From: Escherichia coli O127:H6 str. E2348/69
Lineage (GTDB): Bacteria > Pseudomonadota > Gammaproteobacteria > Enterobacterales > Enterobacteriaceae
Direction: 5' to 3' (one strand)
Assembly: GCF_000026545.1 (NCBI RefSeq)
Contig: NC_011601.1
Length of the DNA: 64,000 nucleotides
Shown in pieces: positions 26,087 to 32,659 of this stretch. Both the position numbers and the translations under genes were made by a program. The notes beneath the pieces are model-generated. The model saw only the letters and a program-made list of their open reading frames with translations, had not been told where the DNA came from and ran no database searches. Each line of letters starts with the position of its first letter. Positions within the stretch are counted from its first letter, which is position 1.

Positions 26087-26117
26087 TGCTAAACCGATTT
26101 AATTAGTTTAGCAATTA
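26087..26117. promoter_or_regulatory. palindromic LacI-family (ScrR-type) operator upstream of scrK
   Basis: TTGCTAAACcgatttaattaGTTTAGCAA inverted repeat, 17 bp upstream of scrK ATG. Confidence 0.45.
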
Positions 26118-26133
26118 GTATATTGGAGCCTTT

Positions 26134-27054
26134 ATGAGCGCAAGAGTATGGGTACTCGGTGATGCGGTTGTTGATTTATTACCCGAAAGCCAGGGGAGAC
26201 TACTACAGTGTCCTGGCGGGGCGCCTGCTAATGTTGCAGTCGGTATCGCAAGGCTGGGGGGGAAAAGTGCCTTTATTGGCAAAGTTGGCGATGATCCTTT
26301 CGGTCGCTTTATGTATCAGACACTGAGTACAGAAAATGTTGATACACGTTATATGTCTCTTGATCCTCAACAACGCACCTCAATTGTGGCTGTAGGACTT
26401 GATGAGCAAGGAGAAAGAAACTTTACCTTTATGGTACGCCCAAGTGCCGATCTTTTTTTACAACCTGATGACCTTCCTACATTTGGGCCGGGTGAATGGC
26501 TCCATCTTTGTTCCATTGCGCTCAGTGCAGAACCTTCCCGAAGTACCGCATTTCTGGCTATGGAGAAAATACGTCAGGCTGGCGGAAACATCAGTTTTGA
26601 TCCCAATATCCGCAGCGATCTCTGGCAGAGTGAAGCGCTATTAAGAAAATACCTTGATCGCGCGCTTTCGCTGGCGAATATCGCTAAATTGTCCGAAGAA
26701 GAGTTGCTATTCATCAGTGGCGAAAGCCAGGTTCAGCAAGGCGCATATTCATTAGTACAACGTTATTCGTTGACTTTATTGCTTATCACACAAGGAAAAA
26801 ATGGCGTACTTGTGTATTTTCAGGGGCAGTTTATCCACTATCCCGCCAAACCTGTTTCTGTCGTCGATACGACCGGGGCAGGAGATGCTTTTGTCGCTGG
26901 ATTACTTGCAGGTCTGGCTGATTCTGGAATACCAACAAATACCAGACAGCTTGAACGAATCATTGCACAAGCTCAGATTTGTGGTGCTCTGGCGACCACG
27001 GCTAAAGGCGCGATGACCGCCTTACCCCGACAACACGATCTCCCTTCACAATAG
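26134..27054 (+). CDS. scrK: fructokinase (PfkB family)
   Basis: 306 aa, ribokinase-family motifs (GGAPANVA, DTTGAGDAF). Confidence 0.85.
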   Translation: MSARVWVLGDAVVDLLPESQGRLLQCPGGAPANVAVGIARLGGKSAFIGKVGDDPFGRFMYQTLSTENVDTRYMSLDPQQRTSIVAVGLDEQGERNFTFMVRPSADLFLQPDDLPTFGPGEWLHLCSIALSAEPSRSTAFLAMEKIRQAGGNISFDPNIRSDLWQSEALLRKYLDRALSLANIAKLSEEELLFISGESQVQQGAYSLVQRYSLTLLLITQGKNGVLVYFQGQFIHYPAKPVSVVDTTGAGDAFVAGLLAGLADSGIPTNTRQLERIIAQAQICGALATTAKGAMTALPRQHDLPSQ

Positions 27055-27104
27055 TGATCCTGCTGTTGTATCTGTAACCCGATTTGTCGTGCCTGTCACA
27101 TTTA

Positions 27105-27178
27105 CTAAATCGGTTTAGCGAAAATAATTGCTCTGGCTAAAAAGTCAGCTTTATTATCAACACCTAAACCGGTTTAGC
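27105..27178. promoter_or_regulatory. two palindromic operators (ctaaatcggtttag and ctaaaccggtttag) in scrY promoter region
   Basis: 14-bp near-perfect and perfect palindromes 45 bp apart, same half-site (AAACCG) as the scrK operator. Confidence 0.5.
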
Positions 27179-27221
27179 ATTTTAGCAATTTTTATAATTC
27201 TCTGATGGGACGCGACAAATT

Positions 27222-30170: not shown

Positions 30171-31579
30171 TGTCGATGCCTTCACAAATGCCCGCGATTT
30201 TACAGGCAGTGATGAAAGGTCAGTCCAAAGCACTGGCAGATGCCCACTATCCTTGTTGGCATCTCGCTCCAGTCACCGGACTAATGAACGATCCAAATGG
30301 CTTTTGTTGGTCTGGAGGCCGCTATCATCTGTTTTATCAATGGAATCCACTGGCTTGTGATCATAAGTACAAATGTTGGGGGCACTGGAGTTCGACGGAT
30401 TTATTGCACTGGCAGCATGAACCATTAGCGCTAATGCCCGATAAAGAGTACGACCGTAATGGTTGTTACTCAGGAAGCGCGGTTAATAATCAGGGCGTTC
30501 TCACACTTTGCTATACCGGTAATGTTAAGTTTGATGATGGCAGCAGAACGGCATGGCAATGCCTGGCCACCGAAAATAACCAGGGCGGGTTTGATAAACT
30601 AGGCCCTGTCATACCGTTACCTGATGGTTACACCGGACATGTTCGTGATCCAAAAGTCTGGAAGCACAACAGCCAATGGTACATGGTGCTTGGCGCGCAA
30701 GATAAAGAGAAACGGGGGAAAGTGCTGCTGTATTCCTCTGTCGATCTCTATACCTGGTCTTTTCATGGAGAAATTGCTGGTAACGGTCTGAATGAAATAG
30801 ATAACGCAGGATACATGTGGGAATGTCCTGATCTTTTCGCCCTTGATGGTGAATACATTCTCCTCTGTTGCCCCCAGGGAATGGTGCGCGAACATGAGCG
30901 CTATCTGAATACTTATCCCTGCGCCTGGCTACATGGACAGTTTGATTACGAGACAGGCAAATTTACGCATGGCGCTTTCTCAGAGCTGGATGCGGGATTT
31001 GAATTCTATGCACCACAGACGATGGAAGCCCCGGACGGGCGACGATTGCTGGTCGGCTGGATGGGGGTTCCTGATGGCGAAGAGATGTTGCAGCCAACCA
31101 GAAAGCATCATTGGCAGCATCAAATGACCTGTTTTCGCGAACTCTCATTCCAGAAGGGAAAATTGTTTCAGATGCCAATCAGGGAACTCGCGCAACTGCG
31201 TGAAGCTGAACACTTCTGGCAAGGAAAAGCGGATCATGCGCCGCATGTCGAAATTGAACGCCTGGAAATGGACATCATTCCGTCGGGTGAGCTGTATCTG
31301 AATTTTGGCAATGCGCTGGCACTGCATCTTAATGACGATGGTATTCAACTACAGAGGAGAAGCCTTGCAGGGCAAGAGAAACTAACTCGTTACTGGCGAG
31401 GAAGCGTAACGTCACTGAAGATTCTCTGTGACAGTTCCAGCGTAGAGATATTCATCAATAATGGTGAAGGTGTAATGAGTAATCGTTATTTTCCCCATCA
31501 TCCAGCTTCGCTGATATTACAGGGTGAGTCTGACGTCACGTTACGCTACTGGTCGCTACGCGCCTGCATGGTAGAATGA
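30170..31579 (+). CDS. scrB: sucrose-6-phosphate hydrolase (GH32)
   Basis: 469 aa, GH32 motifs (NDPNG, RDP, EC); start overlaps scrA stop. Confidence 0.85.
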
Positions 31580-31604
31580 GGGTTTTGAATTACGGATCCT
31601 CGTC

Positions 31605-32612
31605 GTGAGAAAAACCAAACGCGTTACTATTAAAGACATTGCTGAACTGGCGGGAGTGTCGAAAGCAACCGCCAGTCTGGTTCTCAATGGTCGTGGCAAA
31701 GAGTTACGTGTTGCGCAGGAAACGCGTGAGCGTGTGCTGAGTATTGCCCAACAGCAGCATTATCAGCCCAGCATTCATGCCCGCTCATTACGGGACAACC
31801 GCAGTCATACCATTGGTCTCGTCGTTCCTGAAATCACTAACTACGGATTTGCAGTATTTTCCCATGAACTGGAAACATTGTGTCGGGAAGCGGGCGTCCA
31901 GCTCCTCATATCCTGTACTGATGAAAATCCTTCACAGGAAACAATGGTGGTGAACAATATGATTGCCCGCCAGGTTGATGGGTTAATCGTCGCATCCAGT
32001 ATGCTGCATGATAATGACTATCAAAAACTTAGCGAGCAATTACCTGTTGTGTTGTTCGATCGCCACATGAACGGCAGTACATTGCCATTGGTCATTACTG
32101 ACTCTGTTTCTCCCACCGCCGCTCTGGTGGCAGATATTGCACGGAGTCACCCGGATGAATTCTATTTTCTGGGCGGACAACCCCGTTTGTCACCGACTCG
32201 CGATCGACTGGAAGGATTTACACAAGGCTTGCAGCAAGCCGGAGTAACGCTACAACCTGAATGGATTATTCACGGTAATTATCATCCGAGCTCAGGCTAT
32301 GAAATGTTTGCCGCGCTATGCGCTCGTTTAGGACGTCCCCCTAAAGCCTTATTCACTGCCGCTTGTGGATTACTGGAAGGCGTTCTGCGCTATATGAGCC
32401 AATATAATTTACTCGACAGTAAAATACACCTGGCGAGTTTTGATGATCATTACTTGTATGATTCACTTTCGGTAAGAATCGACACAATACAACAGGATAA
32501 TCGCCAACTTGCTTTTCACTGCTTTGAACTTATTTCGCAACTGATTGAAGGTGAAACGCCATCCCCATTACAGCGTTATCTTCCTGCCAGTCTACAAAAA
32601 CGCTACCGATAA
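31605..32612 (+). CDS. scrR: LacI-family sucrose operon repressor (GTG start)
   Basis: 335 aa, N-terminal [26 protein letters not shown]. Confidence 0.85.
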
Positions 32613-32631
32613 TCCCGTCACTATCTTGCAT

Positions 32632-32659
32632 CGCCCCTGTAAAACGGGGCGATTATTTT
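32632..32659 (+). terminator. rho-independent terminator after scrR
   Basis: cgcccctgtaaaacggggcg followed by attatttt. Confidence 0.5.

Follow-up and report, generated by a model that had tools for sequence, protein, structure and literature searches.

A chromosomal scrK–scrYABR sucrose regulon at the ygcE–queE CRISPR-II site in Escherichia coli E2348/69

Introduction

How did a sucrose regulon come to lie between ygcE and queE on the chromosome of Escherichia coli O127:H6 strain E2348/69, and is it a settled part of that chromosome? We addressed this question in a 64,000-nucleotide stretch of contig NC_011601.1 (hereafter the window, to which all coordinates refer), in which positions 25500–33500 are 100% identical to NZ_CP059840.2 of the enteropathogenic E. 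coli (EPEC) strain E2348/69. Our sequence comparisons indicate that the locus is almost certainly a chromosomal scrK plus scrYABR regulon at the CRISPR-II site, where it would have replaced the CRISPR2.2-3 array together with its leader after an arrival long ago.

The ability to use sucrose varies within E. coli and serves as a diagnostic as well as an ecological trait. It is already published that the scr locus explains fast growth on sucrose in numerous B2 and F lineages, among them ST131, ST1193 and EPEC1, and the locus has some interest for the engineering of sucrose-using strains. A 6.7-kb scr locus was described next to queE at the CRISPR2.2 ('iap') repeats, with ∼0.5 kb replaced and no flanking insertion sequence (IS) (Stephens 2024, PMC11251922); that paper cites Diez-Villasenor 2010 and Trevino-Quintanilla 2007. 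CRISPR2.2-3 arrays sit between ygcE and ygcF, the latter being queE (Almendros 2014, PMC3903273), and the ygcE–queE 'Region C' holds scr genes in 47% of 237 uropathogenic strains (PMC12736100). The EPEC report to which the initial annotation of this DNA had alluded does exist: Trevino-Quintanilla 2007, which by its title concerns an EPEC regulon in a variable region with iap sequences, is cited in PMC11251922 and PMC7690375. A literature search for a sucrose scr regulon in E2348 returned no paper. The abstract of the 2007 report is said to name E2348/69 and the ygcE–ygcF site; the report is the reference for EPEC T19 as well.

The scr segment takes the place of the whole CRISPR-II intergenic region

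We mapped the junctions by BLAST against K-12 MG1655 and LF82, a B2 strain devoid of scr. Homology to both strains stopped at 25974, 5 nt past the ygcE stop codon, and restarted at 32695, 2 nt before the stop codon of queE. Both junctions (25974/25975 and 32694/32695) were exact, and they were equal whether K-12 or LF82 was used for the alignment. The segment absent from the two strains spans 25975–32694 (6720 bp) and thereby reaches a little further at either end than the 26087–32659 assigned to it in the initial annotation. The flanking genes, together with the junction alignments, confirmed the ygcE–queE gap as the site. On the left is ygcE (24491–25969, + strand), a conserved gene for an FGGY-family sugar kinase, and on the right is queE (ygcF; 32697–33368, − strand), which is likewise conserved.

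Between the same end points there are 1365 bp in K-12 and 465 bp in LF82. The K-12 intergenic region contains CRISPR repeats at ∼61-bp spacing, the LF82 stretch contains two CRISPR repeats of the I-E type with one spacer and an AT-rich leader, and 'CRISPR' is annotated between queE and ygcE in many RefSeq genomes; most E. coli have such an array at this place. With 1365 bp between them, ygcE and queE are not immediate neighbours in K-12, contrary to what had been assumed at first. The scr segment occupies the same chromosomal slot as the E. coli CRISPR-II locus, which has repeats, spacers and a leader, whereas the window keeps none of the repeat, spacer or leader DNA of the K-12 and LF82 slot; the 29-nt I-E repeat gave 0 matches at ≤3 mismatches in the whole window. 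Since this DNA is gone, the event was a replacement of the whole region, and not the 6.6-kb insertion that had been proposed. The ∼0.5 kb given earlier for the DNA replaced (Stephens 2024) fits B2 strains like LF82, while relative to K-12 the corresponding value is 1365 bp.

The DNA replaced includes the ygcE terminator as well as the CRISPR repeats and leader. Just past the ygcE stop codon, in place of the ygcE hairpin of K-12 and LF82, we observed a different hairpin at 25982–26009 (+ strand; GUGCCGGG, a 12-nt loop and CCCGGCAU), which may act as a candidate ygcE terminator.

The segment encodes five intact scr genes

Between ygcE and queE there are five open reading frames (ORFs), all intact and all on the + strand, in the order scrK, scrY, scrA, scrB and scrR. 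None of them has an internal stop (0 in all five), a frameshift or an IS element within, and all five proteins align to their family models over the full length. Frameshifts in scrA and scrB were looked for in particular, and none was present. Four of the five proteins (ScrK, ScrA, ScrB and ScrR) exceed the curated cut-offs of NCBIfam. Family models, a match to a solved porin structure and the gene order all agree with the initial annotation of the cluster as a complete scrK–scrYABR sucrose regulon of the phosphotransferase system (PTS).

The first gene, scrK (26134–27054), encodes a predicted fructokinase of 306 aa (NF006957, 511 bits against a cut-off of 450) with the motifs GAPAN and DTTGAGD. 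Its naming is inconsistent among RefSeq records, which give 'aminoimidazole riboside kinase' for the E2348/69 gene and 'cscK: fructokinase' elsewhere; the model that it passes is the NCBIfam fructokinase equivalog. The product of scrY (27222–28739; 505 aa) is a predicted sucrose-specific outer-membrane porin with the LamB fold and an N-terminal coiled-coil extension, corresponding to the Pfam domains LamB and Sugarporin_N, and its residues 93–505 match PDB 1a0s, the solved sucrose-specific porin (E = 1.8e-226). The gene scrA (28800–30170) encodes a sucrose PTS enzyme IIBC (EIIBC) of 456 aa (TIGR01996, 649.6 bits; cut-off 559.3). The Pfam domains in ScrA are PTS_EIIB and PTS_EIIC only, with the phospho-cysteine Cys26 in the motif CATRLR; as there is no EIIA domain, ScrA must borrow an EIIA, like its counterparts in pUR400 and Klebsiella. 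By established knowledge this EIIA would be EIIA-Glc (Crr). The start of scrB (30170–31579) shares 1 nt with the scrA stop, and its product of 469 aa is a sucrose-6-phosphate hydrolase that belongs to glycoside hydrolase family 32 (TIGR01322, 548 bits; cut-off 356), with the catalytic motifs NDPNG, RDP and ECP present. The last gene, scrR (31605–32612), has a GTG start and encodes a LacI/FruR-type repressor of the FruR/ScrR (fructose/sucrose) subfamily with 335 aa (TIGR02417, 462.8 bits; cut-off 389.6).

Three palindromic boxes mark the two scr promoter regions

We found three palindromic boxes in the promoter regions of the cluster. One of them, CTAAACCGATTTA (26089–26101), is a putative ScrR operator in the scrK promoter region, at −1132 relative to the scrY ATG. 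The other two precede scrY: CTAAATCGGTTTA (27105–27117; putative operator O1, −116 from the scrY ATG) overlaps the spacer of the promoter described below, and CTAAACCGGTTTA (27164–27176; putative operator O2) is at −57. The 13-nt pattern CTAAAYCGRTTTA had seven matches in the window when ≤1 mismatch was allowed on both strands, compared to 0.2 expected. Six of the seven correspond to these three palindromic sites, and there were no other exact sites. The seventh (45472–45484, − strand; CTAAATCGGTTTT) has one mismatch, lies by its position inside barA and is probably a chance match.

The same arrangement was observed in other species. The core box TAAAYCGRTTTA was present within 150 nt upstream of scrY in all 80 of the 80 other-species scr loci (Enterobacterales) and at the scrK promoter in 42 of them, with a single box elsewhere in those loci, and the offsets from the scrY ATG were the same as in the window. 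This recurrence of box positions across 80 loci constitutes a clear phylogenetic footprint, and we interpret the three boxes as predicted ScrR operators, akin to the FruR-like operators of the ScrR proteins of pUR400 and Klebsiella.

A sigma-70-like promoter of scrYABR (27101–27128, + strand) could be assigned from its match to the consensus (TTTACT, a 16-nt spacer and AATAAT). Its −35 hexamer is abutted by a half-conserved CRP-like site (27085–27100; TGTCG-N6-TCACA), read from the sequence, which suggests catabolite control of scrYABR. Downstream of scrR, a hairpin resembling an intrinsic terminator (32630–32659, + strand) is formed by ATCGCCCC-TGTAAAAC-GGGGCGAT (32630–32653) and then TATTTT; its predicted energy is −15.2 kcal/mol, and it is plausible that it works as such. 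We also considered whether the hairpin at 32632–32659 was a leftover I-E repeat and rejected this, as the repeat had 0 matches at ≤3 mismatches and the hairpin sequence is unrelated to it.

Some observations weigh against the assignment of these genes and sites to a working scr regulon. In NCBIfam, ScrY reaches maltoporin/LamB models, and these only below the cut-off; the GTG start of scrR comes with a weak ribosome-binding site; and the promoter scan returned 9 sites against 11.2 expected from shuffled sequence. For ScrY, the Pfam and PDB matches are decisive in assigning it as a predicted sucrose porin despite the sub-threshold NCBIfam score. As the promoter scan was not enriched over shuffled sequence, we only infer the promoter and CRP assignments.

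Besides the ygcE–queE site, the E. coli module has a second, mobile context

We surveyed 5426 complete E. coli genomes, and plasmids from PLSDB, for the module. It was carried by ∼985 of the 5426 genomes (18%). The ygcE-side junction was found in 840 genomes and the queE-side junction in 839, which makes the module accessory as first proposed, and the copies at these junctions in other strains were 99.1–99.3% identical.

A probe for an alternative right junction revealed a second context in 146 genomes, with 38 of all the matched places on plasmids. Taken together, the 840 and 146 genomes account for essentially all the carriers. In NCTC11121, APEC E18005 and 23CRST025 the module is located inside a tRNA-Phe (pheV) island, alongside a tyrosine integrase, an H-NS-like gene, genes for type I restriction and IS fragments. 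PLSDB contained 22 E. coli plasmids with the module (99.0% identity), and the one plasmid that was inspected is conjugative and of the IncFIA/FIB/FIC type. Copies in pheV islands and on plasmids are 98.8–99.2% identical to the module of the window. Moreover, the ScrY protein accession is identical between E2348/69 and two pheV copies, and the ScrR accession between E2348/69 and a plasmid copy.

The pheV and plasmid copies have a 7074-bp unit in common, which overlaps the window only from 26013/26021 to 32613. Specific to the ygcE–queE context are 43 bp on the left (25975–26017) and 81 bp on the right (32614–32694, with the terminator). This bears on the statement that the island ends in its own terminator: the hairpin is real, but it sits in the 81 bp past 32613, where the homology with the other E. 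coli context and with other species ends. Likewise, to describe the locus as stably fixed is too strong, since 146 genomes hold the ∼99% identical module in pheV integrase islands or on conjugative IncF plasmids.

Our literature search found no published report of this pheV and IncF context of the scr module. Plasmid mobilisation of the locus was not observed in the collection of Stephens 2024 (PMC11251922), and the second context may therefore be under-reported. It is only a mildly new point; the locus itself is ordinary and already known.

No recent donor and no mobility signature could be found

We searched for a donor by comparing ScrY with one genome per species from 185,579 species. None of these genomes had a ScrY above 83% amino-acid identity. 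The best ones outside E. coli, at 83%, were from Kluyvera, Enterobacter and Klebsiella spallanzanii, and that of K. pneumoniae was at 74%. As DNA, the closest loci elsewhere were 72–74% identical, with homology only from ∼26075 to 32613, and plasmid matches from outside E. coli reached 72–76% only. The comparison with Klebsiella scr and with E. coli genomes, proposed along with the initial annotation, gave a gene order colinear with K. pneumoniae, Enterobacter and Kluyvera at amino-acid identities of 64–91%, and E. coli copies at ∼99%. The identities to K. pneumoniae were 69% for ScrK, 74% for ScrY, 91% for ScrA, 66% for ScrB and 85% for ScrR. As no close relative was found, there is no sign of a recent donor, and judged by these identities the E. 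coli version is an old lineage of the regulon of its own.

The claim that mobility genes are absent from the junctions also stood. Annotation and ORFs revealed no IS or integrase at either junction, and a tRNA scan of 15000–45000 gave no tRNA genes. The two junctions had no inverted repeat of ≥10 nt that could represent terminal inverted repeats, and no direct k-mer of ≥9 nt in common that could represent att sites or target-site duplications. An Rfam scan gave nothing inside the island, its only hits in the window being sok and CsrB elsewhere. The comparison of base composition with the flanks, likewise proposed at the outset, showed that the island is lower in GC (46.8% versus 51.0% in the rest of the window) and in GC at third codon positions (GC3; 38–48% versus 55–61% in ygcE, yqcE and queE). 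Thus, among the classical marks of an integrase-borne genomic island, the locus has the deviant base composition and lacks the integrase or transposase, the tRNA/tmRNA site and the flanking repeats.

Discussion

Judged by homology to the pUR400 and Klebsiella system, ScrY would pass sucrose across the outer membrane, and ScrA, using EIIA-Glc (Crr), would import it as sucrose-6-phosphate. ScrB would then cleave this to glucose-6-phosphate and fructose, and ScrK would phosphorylate the fructose. ScrR is predicted to hold both promoters off via the three palindromic TAAAYCGRTTTA operators until inducer is present. The segment was most likely acquired long ago through a recombination that exchanged the whole intergenic region, and its later spread in the B2 and F lineages would have been vertical and by flank-mediated homologous recombination, without an element of its own. 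The cloned locus of a B2 strain (at least 99% identical) suffices for growth on sucrose in K-12 derivatives (PMC11251922).

Several other accounts of the locus have to be weighed against this one. That a 6.6-kb cassette was simply inserted between genes adjacent in K-12, which was the model of the initial annotation, would agree with the two intact flanking genes and with homology ending 5 nt and 2 nt from their stop codons. The three-way junction alignment already refutes it, as the 1365 bp (K-12) or 465 bp (LF82) with CRISPR repeats and leader have left nothing in the window, and we give this model practically no chance. That the regulon was imported recently by horizontal transfer, whether from Klebsiella, Citrobacter or a Salmonella plasmid of the pUR400 type, we consider extremely improbable as well. 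The low GC and GC3 of the island would be in its favour, and Citrobacter-like scr loci do occur in a few E. coli, but such a locus is only ∼67% identical to the B2 type (Stephens 2024, PMC11251922). The best matches among the 185,579 species (83% for ScrY, 72–74% for DNA), the 66–91% identity of the K. pneumoniae proteins and the 72–76% of plasmids from outside E. coli all speak against it. The cluster could also be cryptic or decaying, and hence non-functional in E2348/69. Some scr-positive isolates indeed grow slowly or carry scrY::IS3 (Stephens 2024, PMC11251922). In E2348/69 there are no stops, frameshifts or IS, the family models are covered over their full length, the active-site motifs are intact, and so are the predicted operators and terminator; decay is accordingly very unlikely.

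A stronger competitor is that the ygcE–queE copy derives from, or has seeded, the ∼7.07-kb unit of the pheV islands and IncF plasmids, so that the module would be a circulating element and not a fixed chromosomal trait. The 98.8–99.2% identical copies in three pheV islands and 22 PLSDB IncF plasmids, the alternative right junction in 146 genomes and the ScrY and ScrR accessions identical across contexts are all consistent with circulation. On the other hand, the ygcE–queE context is about six times commoner, the contexts have no common DNA beyond 26013–32613, and the junctions bear no recombination-site signature. On balance, we regard circulation as a possibility to be taken seriously, though not the one we favour. 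The more pointed proposal that the B2-type module, held to be native and immobile, circulates as this ∼7.07-kb unit, with the ygcE–queE copy either captured from it or its seed, is offered tentatively and is rather unlikely to hold. An old chromosomal regulon that took over the CRISPR-II site is the reading we retain.

The segment is the same locus as the chromosomal scr of the E. coli B2 and F strains, with the same genes, order, site and 6.7-kb size and the same lack of flanking IS (Stephens 2024, PMC11251922), and nothing of substance is different in E2348/69. To the published description we add the exact junction coordinates, the replacement of the whole CRISPR-II region, the three-box footprint across species and a count of the carriers, 15% of which have the module in the second context of pheV islands and IncF plasmids. 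The scrK/scrYABR layout and the positions of the operator boxes are those of the scr systems of pUR400 (Salmonella) and K. pneumoniae, the subject of the regulon work of Schmid, Lengeler, Jahreis and Titgemeyer. The likeness extends to an EIIBC ScrA without EIIA, a family-32 ScrB, the N-terminally extended porin ScrY and a FruR-like ScrR. In comparison with K. pneumoniae, where amino-acid identity is 66–91%, GC is lower in the E2348/69 locus and the context is the chromosomal CRISPR-II site. The non-PTS csc regulon of E. coli EC3132 and W also serves sucrose use, is variably present and has a LacI-type repressor and a fructokinase. It employs, however, the LacY-like symporter CscB and the cytoplasmic invertase CscA and has no porin, whereas the scr locus employs a PTS EIIBC and a sucrose-6-phosphate hydrolase. 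Membership in the csc regulon was ruled out, the transporter being a PTS EIIBC and the hydrolase of the scrB family.

The CRISPR-I locus and other neighbouring regions

As the initial annotation had supposed, E2348/69 lacks the cas I-E genes: the iap–cysH interval (CRISPR-I) of the window contains no cas genes. The proposed occurrence of scr in strains lacking cas I-E holds as a strong association, but it is not absolute, since Group IV strains carry both type I-E cas and scr (PMC12736100). The CRISPR-I locus (7496–10909) has neither cas-E genes nor a CRISPR2.1 array. A 1.6-kb gap in it contains hok (8658–8810, − strand), the sok antitoxin RNA (9904–10053, − strand) and an ORF for a 424-aa IS481-like transposase (8872–10146, + strand), which RefSeq lists as an incomplete pseudogene. 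The IS481-like element appears to sit between sok and hok.

The two flanks of the CRISPR-II slot differ in their divergence. The last 250 bp of queE (32695–32944) had only 80–90% identity in 3857 records, and 96.9% in the scr-less LF82, while the last 250 bp of ygcE had 95–99% identity in nearly all genomes. Divergence at the queE end of the slot is therefore exceptional, independent of scr. The DNA downstream of queE (33369–34534) is also variable: K-12 has the small gene yqcG before ygcG, LF82 has extra genes for LemA and TPM-domain proteins, and the window has ygcG alone, with a low GC (41%; 35.8% at 33500–33999). Further downstream, the window contains the CsrB small RNA (52106–52465, − strand) as a full-length Rfam match of 382 bits, which is ordinary and expected near the genes of the barA region in E. 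coli.

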